DNA of 63,013 nucleotides, filler included, from Sphacelaria rigidula (lineage: Eukaryota), in assembly GCA_964200075.2 (NCBI GenBank). It is 9 parts of 9 records of this genome, joined end to end, with 100 filler letters (N's around TTAATTAATTAA, not from the genome) between each part and the next. Parts side by side here need not be neighbours in the genome. Positions count along the whole stretch, not along the records: positions 35,066 to 41,977 come from CAXNAA020017441.1; 8 more parts are not named here. The stretch is one strand, 5' to 3'. Positions 6,914-56,214 of the stretch are shown here, one piece after another. How positions within the stretch are numbered: position 1 is the stretch's first letter; each line of letters starts with the position of its first letter. The notes below the pieces were generated by a model. It was not told where the DNA came from, made no database searches, and saw only the letters and a list, made by a program, of their open reading frames with translations. Both the position numbers and the translations under genes were made by a program.

Positions 6914-7013
6914 NNNNNNNNNNNNNNNNNNNNNNNNNNNNNNNNNNNNNNNNNNNNTTAATTAATTAANNNNNNNNNNNNNNNNNNNNNNNNNNNNNNN
7001 NNNNNNNNNNNNN
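6914..7013. other. Artificial contig linker (N44-TTAATTAATTAA-N44)
   Basis: Identical linkers at 13927-14026, 20940-21039, 27953-28052, 34966-35065, 41978-42077, 48990-49089 and 56002-56101; intervening contigs are 6913 or 6912 bp (size-sorted). Confidence 0.97.
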
Positions 7014-13845: not shown

Positions 13846-14169
13846 GGGGGGGAAAAAAAAGGAAAGGGGGTTTGTTTGGTGGTTGGGGTGTTAAAAATAA
13901 AAAAAATAGTTTAAATTTAAAATTTTNNNNNNNNNNNNNNNNNNNNNNNNNNNNNNNNNNNNNNNNNNNNTTAATTAATTAANNNNNNNNNNNNNNNNNN
14001 NNNNNNNNNNNNNNNNNNNNNNNNNNGTGTACGTCTCGTTCGCGCTGCTGTGACTACACTATACGTATTCCGCTTCGATGTGTGCATTTCCCTTCAAGTA
14101 GACCTATCTAAATCACCCTAGTGTAGGCTGCACTTCCCTTGAAGCAACTCAATCTCGGCTGCCATTCAT

Positions 14170-20641: not shown

Positions 20642-21676
20642 AGTTAGTTTACGGAGTCGGAATTTTCTAACACTGCCGTGTTATATTTATTTATTCCTCT
20701 TTTGCTTCATGTATAGAGAGAGCACGTACAGTAGTGCGAGCCAGCATCATCCCACCTCCATCTACAGTGCGGCACATTAACCGCCACTCTTCACCAGAGC
20801 GAAACGGTTGAGATTCTTGATGCTCGACATGCCATGCTTCGTCGTGGGTCTGATTACCCCCCCCCCCGTTAGCCTGGTCCGTCGAAAACCCGGCGTGCTC
20901 CGTCCCGCCTTTGTAGGGGCGGATCCCCGATGGGGTTGGNNNNNNNNNNNNNNNNNNNNNNNNNNNNNNNNNNNNNNNNNNNNTTAATTAATTAANNNNN
21001 NNNNNNNNNNNNNNNNNNNNNNNNNNNNNNNNNNNNNNNCGTCTGTGTCGATGAGATATTGCTTTTAGAGCTTGAATCCGTTTTTAGGCTGGCCCAGCTC
21101 GTACGTGCTCTCTGAATACGCCTTTCTCACAATCCCAGCGGTTGGGCAGGAATCGAACATATCCGTACCGCACGTCCAGCATTGCCTTTGCCCCACTCCC
21201 CCTGGCGGATGGTAGTGCAGCCGCGGGCTTGTCTTCGAGTGCTCGATGACAGTCCCAACTGAAACTTCGAGTAGATAAAGAGGGGTGACGGATAACACCG
21301 CGCGGTTTCTTGTCCTGCCTTCTCCATGAGCAACCCTCAGAGGTCCACCGTCGACGCTCCGTCCCACAATGCATCGCGGGAGTTGAACACAGACAAGCAA
21401 TACCGTATGTCCACCGTATGACCAGCGGTTGTGGAATTCACATGACGCTTCACCGCCGCATGCACCACAGTGCATACCTATCGTCGACAGACTGCTGTAC
21501 CACTGCGTGCAAACTGCCTCTTACATCAAATGTAGGCAACACAGCACTGTCTGTACTGCACGGTGTTCATACATGCAATACATGGCTGCACATATCACAC
21601 GGGGCACACGGGTAAAACATTGTACCCAAACGAAGGCCGCCACCCCGAACGGTTAATGATCTACCCTGCTGTAAAT

Positions 21677-27289: not shown

Positions 27290-30200
27290 CATGTCTATCA
27301 TGTGACCACGGCTGGATCTCTGAAGCATCAGTTAATGGGCGACAATCATCATCGCCATCCTCACCATCATCAATATCGTGCGATTATATTGGGTGGGATG
27401 GAGACCACCATAAGCAGTGACCGTGCCACCACCGCACGTGGTATGTCATGTACCAGGGATTTACAAGCCCTAGCCCACGGGTGGAACAGTTGTTCTTACA
27501 GGGCTCTAGGCAGACTCAGCTGCGAGTTCTATGCTGTATGATCCATACGCCCCAAAACTCCAGGGCCGTCCTCGGTTACGCGCTTCGGACTATGGTTGCA
27601 CAGTTCTAAGTTAAACTTCCGTTAGCGGTGTCACTGCGGTTCATACGGTGCGCGGTACTGGCAATGTGTGTCACGGTTATGGGCGCGCCTGACCCCCCAA
27701 ACTGGGCAAAAAAAGTGTTACCGACCAAAAGCATGAAAAGACCCGAACATATCGACTTTCGGGGCTTATTCAGGCTCGTCGGGTAAGATATGCCTCACGT
27801 CATCGGGAGAGAACGACATGGATCCAAAATTCATATAGAGAACCCTACAGTTACTTCCGTCGTTGTTCCATATATGCTGGATGCCACTGCGCCACTGCGT
27901 AGCTTTTCGTCCATGCTTGCGATACGCTGGAGTGCCAGGAGGCTAGTTGGGTNNNNNNNNNNNNNNNNNNNNNNNNNNNNNNNNNNNNNNNNNNNNTTAA
28001 TTAATTAANNNNNNNNNNNNNNNNNNNNNNNNNNNNNNNNNNNNNNNNNNNNCTTGTCCCCTGGTCATCATCCAGGATCCTACACATGCTACATCTACTA
28101 CGCCTTGGTGTATTTTGGCTACAATGCACAGAATTGCCACTGTGGCGAAGCAATAGAGAGCATAACTTATATGTGGCAGAACGAGAACTATGCAGAACGA
28201 AAAACGGGACGTGCAAGAGGGGGAAATACGGGACATGAACGAAGGTAGCATGACGTCGTTTAATGCATAAGACTTTAGGGAGAAAGTGATGGCTACACTC
28301 GGGAGATACTAGGAACGTACATGGTGGCCACAGAAGGCGGAAGAGGACGGGCATTTGATATATGAAAGGTTCTTGCGTGACGCATGGAAGAAACGTGATA
28401 CGCACCGAAATGTTGGAGGTGTCTCTATTAGGAGTAGGAACGGTGCTCCGTCTCGAAAGGGATGCGTGGTCAGAGGCCAAACGACTGAAGTAAACAACAA
28501 ATAAGGACACCTTCCCCCTGAACCATTTCTAGAAGAATACCCACGTATAGGGAGCGCCATTCTTTATTATTTTTATTGATGTCAGTCTTCGTTTTTAGTG
28601 GAACGCGCGTGATGTGGTGGACACGCTCCGTCAACACGCACAGTAAACGAATAGCGGATCGCTAAAGCGAATAGATTCCGAGATAGGCCTCGATGATTAA
28701 TCATACTGTTCAGTTTCGTCCTGTTTTTTCACGTGAAAATACTCTGCATTCGCCGAGGTTCAAGTTCTGCAGGTCTTGGTGATGTACCCTCAAACCTGAA
28801 GTAAGAATTTTGCCGACACCCTGAACCGACGTCGCAAGGTCCAGACTCCAGGCTTCAGCCACGCACGAATACACTCTTGCTAAGAGGAGAGGGGCCGACT
28901 TCGCGTTCGAGCGTGACATGAAGTCACCGGCGTTGAGACCGGTATTAACTCCGTTGACACTTACCCGTATTTTGCGTCCGTGCACCTTTGTGTTGCAAAG
29001 TGATGCTGTACAGTGTTCCCCAGCAGTTGATTCGCAACCCGCGTGCACGGCTTTTTTTCTTCCTTCGTTTTGTTGAGCTATGCTTTGTTGATTGTGTACG
29101 GCTTCCTCACCATATGCCATGCACTACGGCATTTCCTTTTGCTTTGATGGTTGCGCAGGATCGGTACTATTGAAGATGTGTCTTGGAGTCATCTCTTCTC
29201 CCCCCCCCTCCCGTTCCTTCCTATTCTTCTCCCCTCTTTGTGTGTGCTTGTTTTATGTTCCTCGCTGGTGAGTTGAATCTGTTCTTTCTGTCCTCCTCTC
29301 TACCTTGAGCTTCGGTTAGTGAGTCTCTCCCGCCTTTTTACCTCGAGCATGTGCATCGTGTGACCGTGGCTGGATTCCCAGGGGACCAGTCAGCGTGCAA
29401 CAATCAACTCTTGTAATCTTGGCGTATGCTTAAACCTTTTTGGGACCGACCCCCGACTCACACGGGGTTGACCATGTGTTAATAAAATAATGAAAAATAA
29501 GTCAGGAAGCGACCTGCCCAATTACGGCGAGGCGGCGACATTTATCAACCAGACCCGAACAACCAGGGCGAGGACTGCTGCCGAGTATGATGTCACTGCA
29601 AATATCATGTGGGGGCCCTATTCCTGGCCCAGATAAGCCGTCCCAGGTTTCCAAAGCCAGGATGCTCTGAGTATGGCTTCTCATATTACTTTCATTCAGT
29701 ATAGCGTTCCCGGGATTTCCCGGATGTTTTTTTGGGTCGCCAGTCTATACTAAGTTAGGCTCACACAGGGAGAAGTATACATACTACTTTGTCGTCATTT
29801 CGACGAGGCACTTAACCCAGGTCGGTCGTGGAAAGACAAAACGAGCTATCGTCACGTATTCTGCCGATCCCTCTTCCGACGCCTTGCAGTGTGCAGTTAG
29901 CATGTATGTAATGGGCGGGGATGAAGAAGCGGGATATAGGCAGTTGATCTTGGTAGCTGAGAACTGCCCAGAACGTGCAAGGGAGTATGAAGCGGCAGCT
30001 GCTGTTGCAGTCGGAGAGGCGTACTGCACTGTACTGTTGTACAGTATGTACGCGCGCCGCAACGCCCATACCCTTCGAAGAGAATTTGCCGCATGCAACG
30101 AAGAGGAAAATGGCGGCCCACCCCGACCACAAAGGGCTGTTGTGATGGGGATAATAGTATCAACCAAAGCAACGAGTGGCGGGCGGCCCGCCAGTCGCCG

Positions 30201-33715: not shown

Positions 33716-35971
33716 GTGAGATATCAGCTGCTGCGTAAAGTGTACCGTAATTGAAACAGAGGATGTTTTGGCCGCATTTTTACGTCGATCGAGCCATACT
33801 CCACATCTACTCCTGCAAGTTGGTTTGATATCGTTCAATTTTTAAAAGCTTGGGTGATGGAGATTAAATTGTCTCTCTCCGGATACTCTGGGCATTGTTC
33901 TACGTGTCGTGGTTCCCACGGACCAGCGATTTTCCCGTCAGGTGCTTGAAACGTACCTTAATTGGGACATTTACCTCTATCTCAAGATATGGCGCACATA
34001 ATATTCTACACAAAGACCAATACATTACGAGTATAGGCCTTGAATGCGCTGAATCTGGATTTCGTTCTCAGTTTCTGACGGTTGTGGCTGAAAATTTCGT
34101 ATGGAGAATCGCCAGTGCATAACAAGAAAACTTCTTTGTTTTCATTTGTTTTCGTTTGTTTCAAGGCCTTAGGGAGTTTTGACAAGAAATGGACATTGTT
34201 CGTTGACCTAAGTTCAATTTTTACATCTATGATTTGACGCTTAGCATGGAGAACCGCTAAGGCATACTGAAAATATGAAAAAGTGGGTGTTCATTTGTTT
34301 TTCGGGAGAGGTTAAGACGTTCTCATGAAAACATGGTCTTTACTATAAGACGTCCTGAATCGGTAAAATATATGAAAATCAACCTGTCCCACTCTTTTTG
34401 GTTCATTGTTCCCTCGCGAGGTTCCACACAACATTTCAACAGACAAGTACCAAGCCTGAGCCGGAAAGTGACCTGCAAAATAGTGTCCCAAATTATGACC
34501 GACCCGGTTTCTAAATGGCCCCGCCTCACCTCAAACCTGAGAGTGGACTTGAAAATTTGGTACGGAGAATGAACAGGGAATGATGGAAAAAATATGGACC
34601 CTGAGTTATTCCTCCATGAGTTGATGGCAATCATCAACTTTCAGCTTTCCGTAAAAATGCGTGTAACATGAAAACGAAGAACGGATCCATATATATATAT
34701 ATATATATATATCTGTGTTGAAAATCGGATATCGATACTCGATACGATTTCGATGATATCGGTCGATACGGCGTATCGGTATCGCCGCTTCCCAATCCGA
34801 TATATGTCGGTACTTATCAATATCAATATCAATATCAATATCGGATATTGATATGGTCGATAGATTCATTTTTATTTTTCACTGGGGGGGGGGGGAGGGG
34901 GGGGGGGGGGACAGCACATCGTGCCGCAGCCCATCACCCCGTCACCCACCACACCCCACACCCCANNNNNNNNNNNNNNNNNNNNNNNNNNNNNNNNNNN
35001 NNNNNNNNNTTAATTAATTAANNNNNNNNNNNNNNNNNNNNNNNNNNNNNNNNNNNNNNNNNNNNGTTTCTTGTTTTTTATAGGGTTTTGTGTTTTATTT
35101 TCACTTTATTTAGTAAATCAAACTATTATTTCTTCTCCCCCCCCCCCCCTCTGCACTCAACGAAGACCCAACCGCATGAAAACCTCTGGACTGTCAGCCA
35201 TCGATTTTGTTCCGAGAGAGAGCTTGCAGTAAAAGTGTTTAGGGGCTCGATATCCATTCCTCTCCAGTGGGGGGCTTGTCGTGAAAACATTGCGCAGGTG
35301 TTCCAAGTCTTCCTACTGAGTGTCTCTGTTGATGGCCACTATAGACATCGCGGGAGGATCGTGTAGACTGATGCTAGCATCGCTCTTTTGTTGTCAAAGC
35401 ACGACACAAAAATACTGCAAAGAGAGGCCTACCGGGTTGATCAATAAGGTGCAAAGCATATGAATGAGCCAAGCAGCGAAGTACAGCACTCATTCGCCCG
35501 TGAGATGAAACAAGAAAACGGTTGCTGCGCACGTCCGCATACGGGGTCGCTTCGCTCTGAACATTATCGGACCATGTTCACCTCGACAAAATGCAACGAC
35601 ATATTATAAATCATTGCAATCGAGCACGATTCATCGCTGCCTCGTCCACGGCGTCACTGGTGCAGGTATTTATATCGAGATGTCATCCATGGCAACGAAT
35701 GCAACCTCTTCTCATTGACGAGGTAGCCCCTCCCGCTTCGCCCCCCCCCCCGCGCTGTGTCGGGGCTTCAGTGGCGGCAACACGTACAAAATATCACCAG
35801 GACCTGCACGTCTCTTGTAGGTGACCACCAGCTGCGGCAAGCCCTGCTCATATCCTCTTCCCTTGCCCCCCATAGTTTTCTACGCTGAAAGCAGGTATGC
35901 CATCCACGGTAAGCTTACCATGGAATACCACGTTAGCAAAAGGCCACAGCCGCATACATGGAAAAGAAGGA

Positions 35972-36028
<57 letters not shown>

Positions 36029-36157
36029 GAACAGCATGGTACTCTGTTTATTCACCGCGCATGCGAATAGTATACACTGATCGGGTGCAGTAAATTTGGG
36101 CTTGGGGACGAGCCCCAGAGCGCCATTGATGGTCACGACCGCTGTAGTCGTAGTCCA

Positions 36158-36301
36158 TCACGCTGATCCCTGAGCCTGAATGTTCTTGATGATTTCCTCC
36201 AGATTGCCTTCTTGAGACGCCAACCGCTTCTGCAGGTACGAATGCTTCGCCTGAAGAAAAACGAAGCGGCAACGAGAGAATGGTCTCATGGGCTAGGAAT
36301 G

Positions 36302-36356
<55 letters not shown>

Positions 36357-36646
36357 TAATGCTACGGTAAGGGTGCACAAATATTCTCTGAGCTTTGATT
36401 TGTTAGGAGCCCTTTATCTCATCCAAAACACGACTAATGAAATACGTGACTACGCCAGGACTACTATTCCAATATGCTAGGGACATCTCGAATGAATCTG
36501 CAAGCGGGGATGCCCTGGCCCCTATTCTTGTGCATCTAGAATTTTTGGGGGCCCCTGAACCAGACAAGATTTTGCGCAAAAAGTCCACCCCTACCGTAGC
36601 ATTACTCTCTCTCTCTCTCTCTCTCTCTCTTTCACACACACACACA

Positions 36647-36686
<40 letters not shown>

Positions 36687-39600
36687 CCTCTTCCCGCCCG
36701 CGTATAACGTAACCTTCGATGTTTTCTTAATTCGGTTTTTTCTTTCGAGTCGTAACTATATTCTTGTGTGTTTTTATTATTTCGCCGACGTGTTTAGTAG
36801 AACCCCGTCCTGCGGCACGCCGTATATTTCATGCTCGTGGGCGTCATATTTATTTGTTTTCCTTGTACCTTGCCTTTTTGTGCCATGACTTAGTGACTGC
36901 GGGCGCTAGATTTCCGGAAAAGGGCAACGGTGAAAAACAACACACACGAAATATATGAAGCCGATGGCACTGATTTCACCTGCAATTTCGAAACGGGATG
37001 CAGCAGTAGCAAATGAGGTGTTTTCCCCTCCATGAGACCGCACGGAGATATTCGCTGCTTCCTCCTCGCTTATTTGTCTACAGTCTCAAGTCCCCCGTAC
37101 CCTCGTCTTTGCGCCCGGATCTTTACTGTCCACCTACAGAAGCTCACCTCTAGCCGAGTCGCCGAGTTACTCTTGTCTGATTGCTGAGCATCCAATAGCT
37201 CCGTAATCTCCCCCTTAGTCCGTGACAAGAACATCTTCCCTGCAGGAATTCCCGAGGGACGGAGGGACGGAGGGACGGAGGGACGGGGGTGAGCAGAACA
37301 GTGATGGCAGACGCACGCATGGGAGACAGGAAAAAGTTATCATCTGGAAGGTGGTGAAGTTCTCGCAAAAACTTTGGCAGCGTACATCACTCTCAACTCC
37401 CCCGCAGTGTACGTACGCCTTCAACAACATTCTACAGGCTATGAATCGTTGAGTGGAAAAAGAGAGAAGTATTGGACAGGGAGTTTGTATGGTTGGCATA
37501 TCTTCAACTTCGCCATTCGCTCAAACACGTGCGTGGTGGGATGTGTGGGGATGCGCTACTACAACAGTAATGGCTCGATACCAACTTTCCAAGGTTGTGT
37601 GCTCTGGAGGGTAGAATTGTATTCCCGGGGTAGTTACCTGGGTATTTACCCGTACCCGACGTTTGCGTGAGTTCTGCAAGCCTCTCACACCGGTACCCGG
37701 TAGTTTTGTGAAACCTGTAAGAAATGCTTTCCTTCACCCACGGTACGGGTATACCCTTGTGAAAATGGCCGGTGGCGGGGAAAAGGTTTCCGCACAGCCT
37801 CCACACCGTATCCAACCGTTCTGTAAGTCCTGTGATAAATCTCATACCCTAACAAACATACCCGTACCCTACAGAACACCACCTTGCACCTTTTCGGTCG
37901 CCCACTGGGAACGAGTGTCCATCGAAACGGAGGGGTGTGGTGCGGGGGAGGACGAGTGGTGTGAGCATGTGAAGGATGGGGGGCAATGAGGCACAGCCGC
38001 CGCGATATACAGCACTCATTGAAGAGAATGATAGGTTCAGGGTACTTGGGTGCAACAAGCGGAAAACAAACATAAACTGGAAGCTGCTGCACACGGCGGC
38101 CCTTATTATAGTCAAAGTAAAAAGACGAGAAAAAAAAGCTTGGATGCCGCATCGACTTTCCCAGGATCCTGGATGCTATCGAGCAGCCCGTTTCCAAGCG
38201 TTGTTACCTACGCTCTGATACATTTGCGCATCATCGTCGACCCTGTCTAGCTCCCCCTTCGTCAACACCCCGCGCTTCTGCTCCCTGACGCACGCCTGCA
38301 GCTGAGCCTCCACCTCTGCCAATTCCCTCTTGGTACCCCCCACTGCTTCGGAAAGGTCTTGGAACTGATCAGGGTCGGCATGGCACAGTATACGGAAAGG
38401 AGAGAGGGGAACTTTACATTGAAAAACAAAACGGTAAAATAACAGATACTCAGTGTGACCAAAACGCGAGGGAGATCGCAGTTCCTGGCTTTCCCTTCTC
38501 GTTGCCATCGGCTCTTCCTTTTTTTATATTTCTTGTCTTTTTTTTATCTTCCTATCTGACGTTGTTCAGTCTCCGCTGCGCAGGCTCGGTAGATGATCTC
38601 CTTGAACAGCACTCTAGACAGTAGATCTATTTTGTGATCGGTCTCTGTTTTACGCGACCGTTTCGGTTATCGGCTTACTGGTTGTTATACTCAGTGTATA
38701 CACCGGTACGTGGCAAGGTAGTCGAAGAGATCGCACGCGGGGAATTTTTGGATTTGAGTAGATTTCCTGTTGTTCGATCCGTCTTACGGATCTATCGTAG
38801 TGTAGGTGCCCTTTTATCGTGTAGATGTTTTGTTTCTTACCTGTCACTGCGAGCTGTTTGATTCATGGGTATGATTGGTATGCTCCTTGCACTCGATGAC
38901 CACGGGTTCGAGAGATCGAGCTAATGTGACGAACATAATAATATGATGATGATCGGGCAATATACAAAAAGGGGTATACCATGGTACTTTTGGAACAAAA
39001 GAGGGTGACGCATTTTTTGCTTTGGGGCCCGGCGCTGCACGCGGGCTAAACATCTCAAAAACACGTTCCAGCGCCTCAGCCCCACGCCCAAGGTGTCTGG
39101 GCAGCATACCTGTCCATTTTTTTTTTCATTTTCACAAGTGTTACTGGGCTGAACTGCGGCGCCGAAAATGACAGCCTGTAAGAGTACTCTTTTTTGTAAG
39201 CACAACGGGAGGGTACACCCTGCCCTCTGTTGAAAAGTTATATTGCACCTAGGGCTCGGAAATGGTTTGTCTAACCATTAGCCACTTGAATGGTTACGCG
39301 TAGCGCACTCATTCACCAGTTAAATGATACATAATGGTTTGGTCATCGGGGGGCGCAACCGTGAGCCAAAAAGCTCTCCCCGGCAGAGAAGGCCCAGCCG
39401 GAGGCGCCCCCGGAGGGCCTCAGTGGAGGCGCCGTGCCAGAGGCACGTTTTCACGCAATTTGGCTTCACTAGAGCTAAAAAACACGAAAACGTTTGGCCA
39501 ATTTTCAAGGGTTGTATGTAGCGTACGTAGCCGGTAATGGCTTCTAAAGCCGGTAACGGTGAATTATGGTTTGGAACCATTATCCAAAATGTTCATGTAA

Positions 39601-40632
39601 CCATTACCATCATTACCATCATTACCATCATAATAATAATGGCCAGTTATAACTGGTACCATTTCCGAGCTCTGATTTCACCCTTTTTTGTTCTACTGTT
39701 GACCCTTTTCGCGAAGTGGTGACCGTACCGCCGCCTCAGCACAAGATACGCCGAGAGGTCACAACCATAACCATTTTCGGTGAAATTACACCCCACCAAA
39801 AAAGGCCGAAACCCAACGACCAGAAGAGTGTAGCCCCCCATCGGGGCGCGGTGGCTCGGTAGCACGTTATGTCCACAACAACACTGGATCAACATCGTCA
39901 GCAGTGCACAGCTCGCCTACGGGTACGATTAAGCAGAAAACGTGCTCGTACCTCTAGGATCGTCTGCGCGTCGATCCGAGGACCGTTCTCCCCTCCTCCT
40001 CCTCCGCCACTGCTCCGTGCCCCTCCGCCCCGCGTAACGGCCGACTTTTTGGCTCGCAGCGTTCGCTTCAGTCGAAGAAGATCGCCGTTTTCTGCTCGCT
40101 CCACGTGGGTCGAACAGCAATGGAAACGACGTTTTTTGTTGTTGTGTAGATGTAACGATGTAACGGAAGGGCTTGTGGTGTGGAGGCGCTTCAGGGAGTC
40201 AGATCGGCCCTCATCACTATGGCGATACGGGGAGGACTAGTTCTTTGTTTATTGGTATATTATTCTCCATTTTCCGTGTGTCGGGGTATTTGGATTGTAG
40301 ACCTGGAAAACAAATGTCGAGCAAAGTGCAAAAAAGAAAAGAAAAAAGAAGCGGATAACTTCCGCACAACTGGACAGGCATCACGCAGCGGAATGATGCC
40401 CGATCCTCAAGGTTTTCATAGGACGTAAAATGAGCGGCGCTGACTGCATTTCGGTAATGAAAAGTCTCTTTGGTGTGGGTACAGCGGTAGAACAAGGATT
40501 CGTTGGACAACGACAAAAACAGACAAGAAAAAATAGAAGATGACTGACTCACTTGAATCTTTGCCGAGTCCAACGTCAAGCGTTGCAAGCGCGGCGCTTG
40601 TCTCCCCCATGTCGCTCTGCGCCGTCGCCAAC
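36158..40632 (-). CDS. PFDN1: TPR-like repeat fused to prefoldin subunit 1 (beta-type); 5 exons, 5'-partial
   Basis: Minus-strand exons 40553-40632, 39952-40091, 38208-38364, 37148-37239, 36158-36250 all have CAG acceptors, the first four have GT donors, and phases match (1,0,1,0). Spliced protein: (R)LATAQSDMGETSAALATLDVGLGKDSKNGDLLRLKRTLRAKKSAVTRGGGARSSGGGGGGENGPRIDAQTILEFQDLSEAVGGTKRELAEVEAQLQACVREQKRGVLTKGELDRVDDDAQMYQSVGKMFLSRTKGEITELLDAQQSDKSNSATRLEAKHSYLQKRLASQEGNLEEIIKNIQAQGSA*. MYQSVGKMF between two coiled coils and YLQK..EGNLEE are prefoldin-1 hallmarks. Confidence 0.85.
36354..36607. mobile_element. Sola-like MITE, copy 3, intronic, within (CA)n/(TC)n
   Basis: TIR GAGTAATGCTACGGTAAGGGTGCAC / CCCCTACCGTAGCATTACTC; body colinear with copy 1. 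Confidence 0.85.
37590..37886. mobile_element. hAT-like MITE, intronic
   Basis: TIR CAAGGTTGTGTGCTCTGGAGGGTA / TACCCTACAGAACACCACCTTG; flanks CAACTTTC vs CACCTTTT (6/8); TACCCG-rich interior. Confidence 0.65.
39250..39674. mobile_element. hAT-like MITE, intronic
   Basis: TIR TAGGGCTCGGAAATGGT / ACCATTTCCGAGCTCTG; flanks ATTGCACC vs ATTTCACC (7/8); ATGGT/ACCAT repeats inside. Confidence 0.75.
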
Positions 40633-40785
40633 CTGAGTTGGAAGGAAAACAAATGAACAAAATGTCCCCCCCCGACACACACACTACTCGATCAATACCT
40701 CGAAGCGACGATCGCCGATTCGCAACCGAAAATCCGTTGGCGATATGCTACTCAAGTTGTTCCAACGCTGTCGTGCTGGGGTTAA

Positions 40786-41449
40786 CCCTTTGGGAACCCT
40801 CCCCTCCCGTCCCCGGTTCAGACGCCTCACTACTTCAAGCGCTGACGAACAAGAAAATATGGTAAAAGAAAACACCGACAACGATCATTTTTACAGCGGA
40901 AAGTCACAGAAGAATTCGCCAACGTACGTCATGCTCGCACCAACAATGTCGCCCGGGTGCGATCGGATTAGTTTTATCGAATGAGGGGACGCAACGGGTC
41001 GAGTGTGTTCAACTTTGCGCACACAGCAAAAACCAGCACCGTGGCCTCTAAATTTCACACGACAAAATTCAGCACCGACTGTATATTTTATATTTGTTTA
41101 GTCCCGTGTGGCACAGCGGCACACGTATATATAGGTGACACACCCCACCGGAGTATTGTTGTGCTGCAGGCCGGAGATCGTACCCGCCCAACACTTGGCA
41201 AGCGCGCTAAGCCACATCACAGAAACAAAGTGGTGTGGCCGAGCACACAGAAATCCCCTCACCACACGTGGAAAGATTGAGATGCGAGTTAGTATTTGCG
41301 CGATTCACCGCCAGTTGGAAGCGGTCGCGGGTCTAAAAAATACGCCTTGGGCAAAATAGTGGCCCTCGGAAGCTGCAAACAATCAACCATATGTTGTTAA
41401 AAAACAGCACCTGGAAATCAACACTTTTCCATCGCCAGTACCAAAAGGG
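40786..41449. mobile_element. piggyBac-like MITE
   Basis: TTAA|CCCTTTGGGAAC ... GTACCAAAAGGG|TTAG; subterminal sequence shared with 24361-25975. Confidence 0.75.
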
Positions 41450-43671
41450 TTAGGGCTTTTGTGTTCTACCTAATAGCTGTTATACACGGAGAAAAAAAAT
41501 GGCACCACCTATTTGCGCAAACAGTAAATAATAAGGGCAAGAGGGAGAGAGAGAGCTCCTAATGCAATGTCATGAAAAAACAAAATGTCGCCTTCACGTG
41601 AGTGATCTCGGTCTTGACGTGGACTGGGACCCAACAGCCCATCGAAGGGAAGCAGGTGCAGAACGACTCCCGCCCCCGTAATTTCAGTGTGTACACTTGA
41701 ATCGACGAGAGCGATCAGGCAGAATCCCTCAGGAGGAGCGCTGCGAAAATTTCACGGGAGCCTGCTCACCGGAAGGTGTAGGTGCTCAGAACCAAACACC
41801 CTCGGTGGGGATATTTTAGACATCGATATCCTCGGAAATGCGCAGTTGGAAACGGCGGACGTTTCGACACACTGAAACTTTCCTGAATAAGGCGAACCTT
41901 CTTTTCTTCCCTCTCCCTCCCCCGACCCCCGATGGGGTTGGCGTCGGTTGGCGATGACGCTGTAAAACACGCCACTCNNNNNNNNNNNNNNNNNNNNNNN
42001 NNNNNNNNNNNNNNNNNNNNNTTAATTAATTAANNNNNNNNNNNNNNNNNNNNNNNNNNNNNNNNNNNNNNNNNNNNGCGGACCCATTTTCAAAATCGGA
42101 TCAGCACATCTCCACAAGCCACAAACAGCAGGCGACCAGCTGGTCACACGACAATAGACGAAACTGCCGTTTTATGAACAACTGCTAACGCCATGTTTGA
42201 CGCGAAGATGTCTTCTCCATGGCGCTGAGACAAAAGTCCCATCCATATCGCCAACGAGCACGGGGCTTCTCGTGGCCCAAGCCTGCCGCGTCGCCCTGCG
42301 GTTATCGATATCCGACGACCCATAGCGGTTTGTGTATAGCATGTGACCGCGAAAAGATTTCGTTTGCTCTTTTTCAGAGGTGGCAAATCCAGATCAACAG
42401 ATCGATGCGGGATGCCCCATTTCGAAGCAACCGTGTTTTCAGCTCCAGTGGTACACAGCGAAGCCTCCTCTGCCTGAGCTTGAAGTCTACGATAGACATA
42501 GGGACACTACTCGATGTTGTATCAGTTTCTAAACCAGGGGCACGTCGCGGAGGCAACCGCTGGATCATGACCAGACCGGTGGATCATGACGAAGGTGATA
42601 AATCCCTACCTACATATTTGCATCCTACAGCACCTTGCCGTGCACCGTTCAGGGGGCGTGTGTTTGCAGCCCACAGTCGGCTGGGTTTTCATCATTGTAT
42701 GCGCGACATTGGAAAAAATCAGGAGCTGCAGGTTCGACACTGATATTACAAATGCATCCAATACTTGGCTTATTTCAGAGCTGCTGATGCTCTGTCGTGC
42801 CTCTAGCCTGTGGGAATCACGGGGTACAACACCCCCTCGGCAGTGGTCGTCGTCACGTCGCGTGTACGCCTTGTGGGAATGCGTGAACTTTTATTTCTAG
42901 TTGCGGGCTGATTCAGAATCCAAATTTAATTGGCCTGCGCGGCGTTTGTTTCGTGTTGTTCATGCCGCTGTGCCGTAGCCCGCACCCTCATAGCCCAGAG
43001 CTCTCCGTACGTCCTCGTTTGTAGGGGGTGACGAGAAGTCAAACTCTACCGTGATGTTCTGACACAGCACACTCTGAAATCATTGCCATCTGCGGAGAGT
43101 TGTGGGCTACGGCGCAGCGGCATAATGAAGCCACGAGAAAATAGTAACGTGGGCTGGTCCGATTTTTTCAAGAAGAGTAGTCTGAAGACTCAGAGGGTCA
43201 TCCCACGATACGGGGCGGGGGGGGGGGGGGGGGGGTGGTGTGCCGACGGGAAAGAAGGAGCATAGNNNNNNNNNNCAAGCTGCGCTACTGGGCCCGCGTC
43301 CGGCGCGCCCCGCGTAGCGCCGGCGCGGCGGCCCCGCCCTCCTATTTGACTGCACGGGAAAAAAGGCTCATAGGTGTGTCAGACGACCTGCCACACTCGC
43401 GGTGCGCTTGTATTTAGGTCAAAATGGTGTCGAGCAGTATGAATGAGCGTTATATATCTTCAACAAGCTCGTTCGAACAACCGTTGCTGCTTCCAACGAC
43501 GACGTGACCTGGAATTTCGTGCAAGAAGTGGCCCGGGATTCCCCCCTCCTCGCTATCGTAGGATGCCTCAAAACAGAATCCACACACACACACCCCGGAA
43601 GGCGGCAACGTGATCTTCTACAAGTATTTCGCTGCAAAGTCGTGGACTGACAGGAAAACCCCAGTACACTA

Positions 43672-47915: not shown

Positions 47916-49171
47916 CTTTAACCATTCAAAACATGGCCCAAACATGAGCGTGAAATCGCGAAAAATAACAGATCTACTATTCCATATCAAGTCGGAAAAT
48001 AACCAAGATCCTCCCCCCCAATATCATCACAAACGTAAGACAATAACAAATCCAAGACCTAGACATGTAAACAACAGCATGAAGGTTGACCACCTCACAC
48101 GCGAATCGAAAGTATACAAGATACAACCAGTATGGATAGGGTAGGGTCATCACCCCCTCCATGTCAAATTCACATAGAGGTTAGGTTCTCGTGGTAAGAT
48201 GCCCGTAAAATCTTACCGGTTTCCATTTGGCGGTGGAAGCCTGGTCAGCCATTTTCAGAAATTTCCGACATCAGGTGCAAAAAGCGCCCAATGAAGGAAA
48301 GGGGTGGACAATGCATGGCATAAAGGCCAAGACCTACTGCACTCATGAAACAAAGACCTTACCAATGACCGACCACATGACCTACGAGAAGGAGCACCAA
48401 GCGGTACGCAGACTTCCTAGAGATCTTGAAGGATAGAAGNNNNNNNNNNAGCTTTCGGCAGCAAAGGTCTACTCGGAAGTATCAGTGGAGTAGCGACCCA
48501 TGATGAATCGTACACGGAGTGGAAGAGTGATGTACGGGACATCCCGGTGCGAGTAAGATCTTGTGTTATGCAAGCCGTACTTGAACCTTATACGGGGAAA
48601 ATGACCTCCCTGGAGGGAAGTAACCAGTACAGTAGCGGGGCAAGAAGAGAGGAGATACGATCGTGGGACGCCTGTATGGTTTACCATGAAGATCGCCTGA
48701 CACAAACGTGGGGTACTTGTGTCAACGGTGTTGAACTTGGCTTCAGGCTACGAGCCCGTGTTGGAGGCATTACTTAGTGTCGGTGAGCCAGGAAAAGAAC
48801 TGAAAGGAACCAGACCCCCAACGAGTAGGAGGATTGGGATATACCAGTGCGTTGAAGATATCCCACGAATACAAATATACTGAACAAGCTGGAGATTCTC
48901 TCGAAGGAGATCGAGAGAGAGACGGTAAGGAAGGGCGGGTGGCGGAGTAAAGAGTGGTCGGGTAAGGTAATGGCAGGTCTGGAAGTTTGNNNNNNNNNNN
49001 NNNNNNNNNNNNNNNNNNNNNNNNNNNNNNNNNTTAATTAATTAANNNNNNNNNNNNNNNNNNNNNNNNNNNNNNNNNNNNNNNNNNNNCCTCCAAACAA
49101 AGAGGGTACCCAAGTTTGTCGCTAATGCACCATGGTATACCCTCCTGTGACGTTTGCCCCCCCCAAAACTC

Positions 49172-55840: not shown

Positions 55841-56214
55841 GCCACTTGTTCTACCATTTCCCCAGAGCAGCTGCAACCATCGCAAAAAGAACCTTCGCAT
55901 ACATCGCTCCCCCCCCCCCCCCCCCCCGATTTTCCCCAACATCTTCCCCCTCTTTTTTTTTTTTTCCCTTCTTTTTTTCTCTTGCTCTTCTTTCCTTCTT
56001 TNNNNNNNNNNNNNNNNNNNNNNNNNNNNNNNNNNNNNNNNNNNNTTAATTAATTAANNNNNNNNNNNNNNNNNNNNNNNNNNNNNNNNNNNNNNNNNNN
56101 NGATCCATAGGTTACCCCCCCCCCCCCCGATTCGCATCTCTAACTGTTGTCGTGTATACCATCCAGTTCGTCCACGCTCAGAGAACATGGGGAAACATTC
56201 CTGATACTATGTGT

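Follow-up and report, generated by a model that had tools for sequence, protein, structure and literature searches.

Five exons on the minus strand of the window (the whole stretch of 63,013 nucleotides of Sphacelaria rigidula DNA analysed here, filler included) lie at 36158-40632. Their splice signals are AG at the acceptors and GT at the donors, and joined together they form a single open frame of 186 codons. The first of them, E1 (40553-40632, 80 nt), covers what is left of helix A of TPR3, then its helix B, and runs into the capping helix (LATAQSDMGETSAALATLDVGLGKDS...), and it matches residues 85-110 of the proteins P0017 and P0014 in the alignment, a region where the structural model of P0014 has the helices H79-91, H95-108 and H113-135. 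After intron 1 (40092-40552, 461 nt, GT..AG), E2 (39952-40091, 140 nt) continues with the capping helix, passes through a Gly-rich linker and opens the first prefoldin helix (…PRIDAQTILE), and this linker is the sole stretch of the model with lower confidence (10-residue block means of 70-71 over residues 131-150). Intron 2 (38365-39951, 1587 nt) includes repeat-family sequence, to which many contigs fit with a likeness of 90-95%, their loose ends falling at 38785-39673. The following exon, E3 (38208-38364, 157 nt), encodes the N-terminal prefoldin helix as far as the beta-hairpin and is 72-78% identical to the brown-algal proteins. Intron 3 (37240-38207, 968 nt), whose boundaries are taken from the exon model and the contig joints, separates it from E4 (37148-37239, 92 nt), which encodes the beta-hairpin (…VGKMFL…) and leads into the C-terminal helix; here G207 and K208 (P0014 numbering) are invariant in all 169 fused proteins described below. 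Intron 4 (36251-37147, 897 nt) has (GT)n and (GA)n microsatellites inside, and the coding part of E5 (36158-36250, 93 nt) provides the C-terminal prefoldin helix and the stop codon TGA at 36160-36158. The 3' untranslated region (36037-36157) reaches at least a (CT)n repeat at 35962-36036, since spliced contigs span 36037-36249 in four out of four public runs.

The splicing was evaluated using Logan contigs of four public runs (X1-X4), which are presumed to be RNA; a processed DNA copy would give identical joints. Regions to which no contig fitted were left out of the evidence. All four introns are bridged exactly by a single contig per run in every run, with the joints at 36249/37147, 37238/38207, 38364/39952 and 40091/40553, where CT..AC on the plus strand corresponds to GT..AG introns, and only two between-run differences occur within the exons, both synonymous and at the third position. 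An earlier note on this DNA had proposed the five exons with canonical splice sites in one frame and had suggested a transcript check across the 39952/38364 junction; both the frame and the junction are borne out in 4/4 of these presumed RNA runs. The same note had placed the beginning of E1 at an acceptor and assumed that N-terminal sequence is missing, which also proved right. The contigs fit the window over 81 letters 5' of intron 1, then depart from it at 40633 and run on into unrelated letters, indicating that the 5' end of E1 is a used acceptor and that 40633-41977 on the minus strand is the 3' part of a further intron of at least 1345 nt, whose donor exon lies beyond the end of the window piece. 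Record 11 of X2 (866 nt) and record 21 of X4 (1176 nt) extend about 460 and 456 further letters 5' of E1, respectively. Moreover, 255 letters of an X3 contig overhang at 40633, and the final 30 of them read NPDFIKGYYR in frame, straight into LATAQSD; these ten residues are identical to the motif preceding L85 in P0011 and carry the TPR3 helix-A motif in frame in transcript contigs of the same organism. The 30-letter overhang is absent from the whole window (no match with up to three mismatches), the upstream overhang has no 11-, 12- or 14-mer in common with it, and KGYYR is missing from its six-frame translation. The exons for the N-terminus lie outside the window because it was put together from nine unlinked pieces with N spacers between them, and the piece with the gene stops at 41977, followed from 41978 by the spacer N44-TTAATTAATTAA-N44. 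The recovery of upstream exons, another suggestion of the note, reached as far as the in-frame overhang, the exons themselves not being recoverable from such a window, and ten of the first 84 residues of Sphacelaria rigidula itself could be read, all from these 30 letters. From its first residue on, the spliced translation aligns to brown-algal proteins starting at their residue 85, with 61-70% identity to five of them (264-271 aa) over residues 85 to the end; together with the end of the piece at 41977, this means that about 84 N-terminal residues are encoded outside it. The region contains the exons for residues from about 85 to the end of a protein of about 270 amino acids, and we consider the whole explanation given below, of which this is a part, likely.

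Alternatively, the locus could encode a short prefoldin 1 only, with a small N-terminal extension, starting from ATG 40610 (the first in-frame Met of E1, giving a product of 179 aa) or from ATG 38508 in intron 2, and the link to the TPR part would then be an assembly chimera or a read-through of two adjacent genes. The ORF from ATG 38508 enters E3 and exists as the called protein P0005, and among the public gene models of brown algae, several consist of prefoldin alone (P0008-P0010). However, P0005 runs past the E3 donor into intron 3, like an ORF called on unspliced sequence, and the short gene models begin inside an intron or carry a partial mark, while in 4/4 runs the contigs join E3 with E2 and E2 with E1 and continue in frame upstream through the E1 acceptor. 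Furthermore, the fused frame runs end to end in 169 of the 315 proteins collected from genomes and transcriptomes of many species. Both starts were set aside on these grounds, and a short prefoldin 1 at this locus is highly improbable.

In the full-length relatives (260-271 aa), three TPR repeats are followed by a capping helix, a Gly-rich linker and the whole of prefoldin subunit 1, whereas for the gene of Sphacelaria rigidula only part of TPR3 and the capping helix are visible from the window alone, the full set of three repeats being seen in the orthologues. In the three full-length proteins scanned (P0011, P0012 and P0014), Pfam reported TPR_1/TPR_2 at 51-57 bits, above the cut-offs, and Prefoldin_2 at 45.2-47.7 bits against a cut-off of 27.6. 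The Pfam check suggested in the note thus succeeded for both domains in 3/3 orthologues but not for the single exons of the window: E1, E2 and E5 (26, 45 and 30 aa) gave no match when scanned alone, and E3 gave a weak one (Prefoldin_2, E 3.7e-4, 20.9 bits), below the cut-off because the exon is half a domain. The model of P0014 has a mean pLDDT of 94.5 and shows seven helices in the TPR region (H5-135), the linker, and then a helix, a beta-hairpin and a helix. The best solved match of the modelled TPR domain is HOP TPR1 with an Hsc70 peptide (1elw_A; TMt 0.95, rmsd 0.8 A, 37% identity), and the next fold matches in Foldseek are the TPR domains of SGT/Sgt2, RPAP3 and PP5. With TPR3 helix A in frame upstream, TPR_1/TPR_2 in the orthologues and this fold match, the view of the note that the half repeat is the end of a three-TPR domain of the co-chaperone type is well founded. 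The HOP residues K8/N12/N43/K73/R77, which form the clamp of HOP as reported by Scheufler et al. 2000, align without gaps to K15/N19/N50/K80/R84. A check of the clamp residues, also suggested before, held for four of the five, as N19, N50, K80 and R84 are kept in 169/169 fused proteins, and less strictly for the first Lys, since position 15 is K in 136, R in 10 and neither in 23 of the 169 (10 of these being a gap). In the case of Sphacelaria rigidula, the last K and R of the clamp are seen, in the KGYYR of the overhang. Judged from the clamp residues and the model, the TPR domain of the fusion may dock Hsp70/Hsp90.

The fusion is already present in public protein sets, unnamed or under generic or wrong names, for example, ‘Hsp70-Hsp90 organising protein’ (UniRef), ‘Stress-induced-phosphoprotein 1’ and ‘TPR repeat-containing serine/threonine protein kinase’. 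HOP/STI1 is composed of TPR1, TPR2A and TPR2B together with STI1/DP domains in about 540-590 aa. The fusion protein resembles its TPR1 (1elw, 7kw7_E) in the three repeats with a capping helix and in the conservation of the five aligned clamp positions (with the exception noted for the first K), but it has one TPR domain instead of three in 260-271 aa, and Pfam, with matches admitted up to E 1, gave no STI1 domain (PF17830). An identity with HOP/STI1 was thus rejected, and the UniRef name is a misnomer because of the single TPR domain and the missing STI1 domain; the true HOP-like matches are separate proteins of 538-596 aa with three matched stretches. SGT/Sgt2 and PP5 (5lyp, 5lyn, 2vyi, 1a17) are close fold matches (ranks 2-7 and 12) in which a single clamp-type TPR domain is likewise joined by a linker to another module, but that module is either a phosphatase or a dimerisation domain together with a Gln-rich one, and in the fusion protein it is a prefoldin subunit.

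As for this second module, the spliced translation of the window aligns to P0011, P0012 and P0014 across the whole Prefoldin_2 domain, in agreement with the full beta-prefoldin domain originally proposed. The helix, beta-hairpin, helix topology is present in the P0014 model (H149-194, E202-206, E209-213 and H215-264); the block means of pLDDT across residues 151-260 are 92-98. Among solved chains, the C-terminal 120 residues of P0014 match human prefoldin subunit 1 with an E value of 2.2e-9 over 112 residues (5.6e-9 for a second chain), archaeal beta subunits are also matched (E 0.14-1.2), and no other human prefoldin subunit is matched at E up to 10. In this one-way search of solved chains, the prefoldin part appears to lie nearer to subunit 1 than to any of subunits 2, 4 and 6. 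Human PFDN1 (7wu7_1, 6nr8_1) shares with it the beta-type topology, the Prefoldin_2 domain and 112 residues aligned end to end, but its chains are single domains of 107-122 aa, and the fusion protein has about 135 extra N-terminal residues (TPR and capping helix) and the Gly-rich linker.

Taken as a whole, the data are probably best explained by a TPR domain of the carboxylate-clamp type at the N-terminus, a short, flexible Gly-rich linker and a beta-type prefoldin 1 in one protein, which would serve in the prefoldin hexamer and provide a docking site. The prefoldin part would take the place of subunit 1 in the hexamer. The termini of a beta prefoldin subunit are at the tip of its coiled-coil arm, and therefore the TPR domain tethered to it would be placed at the opening of the substrate-binding cavity. 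In this position it could bind the EEVD-type tail at the C-terminus of Hsp70 (or Hsp90), and clients such as nascent actin and tubulin might be exchanged directly by Hsp70/Hsp90 and the prefoldin-CCT route. Elsewhere among eukaryotes, separate TPR adaptor proteins provide such coupling.

Another possibility is that the fusion is real but acts alone or in a prefoldin-like assembly of the PAQosome type, in which an RPAP3-like TPR domain has been merged onto a beta subunit, and that an unfused prefoldin 1 serves the classical role. The TPR domains of RPAP3 are close fold matches (4cgv_B, 6fdp and 6fd7 at ranks 8, 19 and 33), and, according to PMC5460035 and PMC5902453, the R2TP/prefoldin-like complex unites TPR and prefoldin-type parts. 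In addition, a search of the ESM Atlas that used just the prefoldin part and left out TPR clusters gave scores of 0.78, which are leads only, among them a diatom-rich cluster of 133-aa Prefoldin_2-only proteins. On the other hand, the prefoldin part matches human subunit 1 over its entire length and no other human subunit, and all the shorter relatives inspected (P0009, P0298, P0308, P0313 and P0314) are truncations of the fused gene, beginning from an internal Met or an intron. An identity with RPAP3/Tah1 of R2TP, in which TPR domains go with an RPAP3 C-terminal domain or a Pih1-binding tail, was rejected as well, as the Pfam scan of three full-length proteins found no such domain, and their C-terminal half is Prefoldin_2. 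The PAQosome with RPAP3/Tah1, as described in PMC13153604, likewise has a TPR part binding Hsp90/Hsp70 tails and a prefoldin-type module in one machine, but these are on separate polypeptides connected via other subunits, while the fusion is one chain with a subunit-1-like partner. A role outside the classical hexamer is considered unlikely. Still less likely, in our opinion, is that the TPR domain binds another acidic C-terminal tail, of a client or a CCT subunit, and acts as a tether for the client or for the chaperonin. It is true that clamp-type TPR domains take several kinds of C-terminal peptides, and Foldseek lists the CHIP TPR domain with a tau peptide (8fyu_B); however, the closest matches in sequence and fold are HOP TPR1, SGT/Sgt2 and PP5, several of which were solved with Hsp70 or Hsp90 tail peptides.

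The survey of domain architecture proposed in the earlier note found the fusion in brown algae, diatoms and oomycetes (the latter represented by three Phytophthora species), and also in xanthophytes, raphidophytes, chrysophytes, pelagophytes, bolidophytes and Platysulcus. The named holders include, besides the brown algae, Chrysoparadoxa, Tribonema, Fibrocapsa, Phaeomonas, Aureoumbra, Mallomonas, Pedospumella/Spumella, Triparma and many diatoms, and every one of them is a stramenopile. The profile was matched end to end in one stretch by 35 of the best 150 representatives at 50% identity. In a tree of 20 named sequences, brown algae group with Chrysoparadoxa and Tribonema (90/90) and the chrysophyte with the synurophyte (99/97), groupings such as vertical descent would be expected to give, while 7 of the 17 branches, the deep ones, are open and the diatom Stephanopyxis is on a long branch apart from the other diatoms. 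The fusion is an old family trait and not a quirk of the Sphacelaria rigidula genome. The suggestion of the note that this lineage may hard-wire a docking module is supported insofar as the TPR-prefoldin 1 fusion is real, but the fusion is stramenopile-wide and not special to one lineage.

In the literature, no paper was found describing a TPR-prefoldin fusion or a prefoldin gene fusion in stramenopiles, or mentioning PITG_10463. A brown-algal genomics preprint (10.1101/2024.02.19.579948) discusses composite genes in general, and no occurrence of ‘prefoldin’ is listed for it, although its CompositeGenes archive or supplements may list the gene; the passages of PMC13153604 on RPAP3 contain neither ‘fusion’ nor ‘stramenopil’. 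Recognition of the fusion corrects misleading names that are spreading in databases.

Since the fusion occurs in Platysulcus, in oomycetes and in all the sampled ochrophyte classes, we tentatively propose, at somewhat less than even odds, that it had a single origin predating the last common ancestor of stramenopiles and replaced the free subunit 1, so that every hexamer there would have a built-in docking site for Hsp70/Hsp90 at one arm tip. This would amount to a chaperone relay hard-wired into the hexamer, of a kind not known from animals, fungi or plants. The fusion would be a candidate marker for stramenopiles, and, if that single origin and replacement are true, it would be a rare genomic change marking the group. 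It is understood only in part how clients move between the prefoldin-CCT route and the Hsp70/Hsp90 system, and a natural covalent fusion of an EEVD clamp with a core prefoldin subunit, kept through the history of a major eukaryotic group, would make direct hand-over between the two testable.

The gene lies on the minus strand, and sequence reading together with scripted splicing gave it five exons: E1 (40632-40553), E2 (40091-39952), E3 (38364-38208), E4 (37239-37148) and E5 (36250-36158), each preceded by AG and all except E5 followed by GT, with introns of 461, 1587, 968 and 897 nt in order from E1. Spliced, they form a single open frame of 186 codons with the stop TGA at 36160-36158, and the translation runs from LATAQSDMGETSAALATLDVGLGKDSKNGDLLRLKRTL... 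through a Gly-rich stretch into prefoldin-like sequence. The five exons, canonical splice sites, single frame and Gly-rich linker ahead of the prefoldin described in the earlier note were the same on scripted splicing. Eight sequencing runs were found, none of them recorded as RNA; for the four used here (X1-X4) this nature was a guess, and their contigs were compared with positions 35700-41950. In all four runs, a single contig (depth 215-320) bridges all four introns, with joints at 36249/37147, 37238/38207, 38364/39952 and 40091/40553 and CT..AC ends on the plus strand. Since these ends occur at all four joints, the introns were removed exactly as modelled; the 39952/38364 junction, which the earlier note had singled out, is spliced in every run, and with the spliced frame these joints confirm its whole observation. 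RNA is the simplest explanation for a library with contigs free of every intron; judged from contigs alone, a processed DNA copy would give the same picture. Within the exons only two letters differ between runs (36203 and 40006), both synonymous and at third codon positions.

At 38417-39670 (intron 2) and 36327-36744 (intron 4), the contigs add up to a depth several-fold above the exon level, and most of them are only 90-95% alike; many loose contig ends occur (36551-36555, 38785, 38929, 39033, 39535, 39632 and 39671-39673). Both stretches look like dispersed repeat or transposon-family sequences within introns. The 3' region and intron 4 contain long microsatellites of the types (CT)n, (GT)n and (GA)n (35962-36036, 36294-36360 and 36596-36689). 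The transcript contigs are interrupted at the (CT)n run, so that they do not mark where the mRNA truly ends, and below 35961 there is a separate contig of 847-850 nt at depth 32-33.

On the E1 side of the joint 40091/40553, the contigs match the window over 81 letters and then diverge, with about 460 extra 5' letters in record 11 of X2 (866 nt) and about 456 in record 21 of X4 (1176 nt). A contig of X3 has a 255-letter overhang at 40633, the last 30 letters of which, read on the minus strand in the frame of E1, give NPDFIKGYYR, followed by LATAQSD. As the overhang is in frame with E1, this exon begins at a used acceptor and the frame extends upstream, so that N-terminal sequence is indeed missing from the model. 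N runs recur each 7012-7013 bases as N44-TTAATTAATTAA-N44 (6914-7013, 13927-14026, 20940-21039, 27953-28052, 34966-35065, 41978-42077, 48990-49089 and 56002-56101), which makes the window a set of nine separate pieces, each about 6912-6913 nt long, with identical spacers across which features are not linkable. The gene is within the piece 35066-41977, and the following piece is not its genomic neighbour. For this reason the X3 overhang was absent when looked for across the window, the upstream part of the gene lying outside, and the first ~84 codons are not readable from it. Shorter N10 gaps at 43266, 44037 and 48440 resemble ordinary assembly gaps. From its first residue on, the spliced translation aligns with residue 85 onward of fused relatives (61-70% identity), and thus the in-frame Met at 40610, which aligns with M in the full-length relative P0014 and with L in another, P0017, is an internal residue of TPR3.

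With E3 as query against longer proteins, 11 proteins were found among 60 candidates. Three are full-length (264-266 aa; Pylaiella littoralis, Ectocarpus sp. 12 and one EukProt record) and have TPR and Prefoldin_2 Pfam families. Another four are brown-algal models, three marked partial, being prefoldin-only or starting in the capping helix, and the fourth (P0009) having an unrelated N-terminus ahead of E3-equivalent sequence. The other four are ORFs called on contigs and reading into introns, among them P0005 (110 aa), which is 100% identical to E3, starts with the ATG-38508 ORF and extends into intron 3. In the window this ORF (38176-38523, minus strand) crosses the end of intron 2 and E3. 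P0005 shows that gene calling on unspliced contigs yields spurious prefoldin-only models, and a similar truncation seems to affect several public brown-algal models. A short, unfused gene product is a further reading; with the 38364/39952 joint in all four runs, it is very unlikely. The prefoldin half of P0014 as query gave eight proteins (five fused, one partial and two fragments), adding fused proteins from Ascophyllum nodosum and a second EukProt record. A rival reading is that the fused protein serves in a prefoldin-like or stand-alone context beside a free subunit 1.

The spliced mRNA encodes a single chain in which a flexible linker joins a clamp-type TPR domain to a prefoldin domain of the subunit-1 type. 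In all three full-length orthologues, TPR_1/TPR_2 (51-57 bits) and Prefoldin_2 (45-48 bits) score above the Pfam cut-offs, and the scan of these three gave no STI1 domain. An AlphaFold2 model of P0014 built on a 36-sequence alignment (mean pLDDT 94.5) has seven helices in residues 5-135, namely three TPR pairs and a long capping helix, then a linker at ~136-148 (block-mean pLDDT 70-71 for residues 131-150), a helix (149-194), a beta-hairpin (202-213) and a helix (215-264). Foldseek matched the TPR part to HOP TPR1 with the Hsc70 peptide (1elw_A, TMt 0.95, rmsd 0.8 Å, 37% identity), followed by TPR domains of SGT/Sgt2, RPAP3, STI-1 and PP5. The C-terminal 120 residues of P0014 aligned across 112 residues with human prefoldin subunit 1 (E 2.2e-9), and no other human prefoldin subunit matched them at E up to 10. 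Three TPRs with a capping helix before a full prefoldin 1, as the earlier note had read the gene, are thus borne out by Pfam, model and fold match. A gap-free profile-to-PDB alignment equates K15/N19/N50/K80/R84 with HOP K8/N12/N43/K73/R77, which reportedly form the carboxylate clamp of HOP (Scheufler et al. 2000). N19, N50, K80 and R84, as well as Y34, R51, G207 and K208, are invariant in the 169 of 315 collected proteins that match the profile of alignment A2 end to end; position 15 has K in 136 of the 169 and R in 10. In these aligned relatives the clamp positions are retained throughout the group.

A profile of five brown-algal proteins against 1.84 billion representatives gave 67,454 matches at E up to 0.001, for the most part TPR proteins. 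Among the best 150, 35 proteins (236-379 aa) match end to end as a single stretch, a further 5 are truncated but include part of each domain, and the remainder are multi-TPR proteins, HOP being an example. At E up to 1e-20, a word-based search with the 36-sequence alignment returned 419 proteins, and most of the 120 matches listed have PF01920 and TPR families. Named holders comprise brown algae, Chrysoparadoxa australica, Tribonema minus, Fibrocapsa japonica, Phaeomonas parva, Aureoumbra lagunensis, Mallomonas marina, Pedospumella encystans, Spumella elongata, Triparma retinervis, the diatom genera Seminavis, Cylindrotheca, Cyclotella, Discostella, Thalassiosira, Nitzschia, Pseudo-nitzschia, Mayamaea, Skeletonema and Stephanopyxis, and Phytophthora infestans, P. 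nicotianae, P. cactorum and Platysulcus tardus, so brown algae, diatoms and oomycetes all have the fusion. All of these are stramenopiles, with membership confirmed by look-up for two of them; this range describes named holders, and with many others being metagenome or transcriptome records it may be wider. The ESM Atlas has two clusters with Prefoldin_2 and TPR, of 83 (Oomycota commonest) and 61 members (Bacillariophyta commonest). In a tree of 20 named sequences chosen from the 169, omitting all unnamed and further diatom and Phytophthora rows, brown algae group with Chrysoparadoxa and Tribonema (90/90) and Mallomonas with Pedospumella (99/97), and the deep forks are open. The tree fits old, vertical inheritance, without proving a single origin. 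P0162, from the Stephanopyxis turris cluster, lies apart from the other diatoms on a branch of 2.4-2.5 changes per column, which is very long; it may represent either a second paralogue or a copy that evolves fast.

Public names of the fused proteins include 'unnamed protein product', 'hypothetical protein', 'chaperonin cofactor prefoldin', 'TPR repeat protein', 'Hsp70-Hsp90 organising protein' (UniRef), 'Stress-induced-phosphoprotein 1' (Seminavis) and 'TPR repeat-containing serine/threonine protein kinase' (Nitzschia); the last three, borne by the relatives P0178, P0213, P0028 and others, are misleading. HOP identity was rejected, the fused protein having one TPR domain and no STI1 domain. 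To our knowledge, the TPR and prefoldin parts are textbook matter and their combination is not. Judged from sequence records, the architecture is already visible in databases; no description of the fusion was found in the literature covered, a scope outside which the composite-gene catalogue of the brown-algal genome paper falls, and the function is a predicted one.

The window gene is classed as a member of a stramenopile-wide, apparently undescribed variant of prefoldin subunit 1; the interpretation of the earlier note is supported, with function as its inferential part. Both termini of a beta prefoldin subunit are located at the distal tip of its coiled-coil arm, the site that holds clients. 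The prefoldin half would act as subunit 1 of the hexamer and carry the TPR domain at the tip of its arm, where this domain may capture the EEVD-type tail of Hsp70 or of Hsp90. The Hsp70 tail is suggested as ligand because the best matches are the Hsp70-binding HOP TPR1 and SGT; the ligand could instead be a different acidic C-terminal tail. With an EEVD-type tail as ligand, the captured chaperone and its client would be brought close to the prefoldin cavity, and the client could then be handed on toward CCT.
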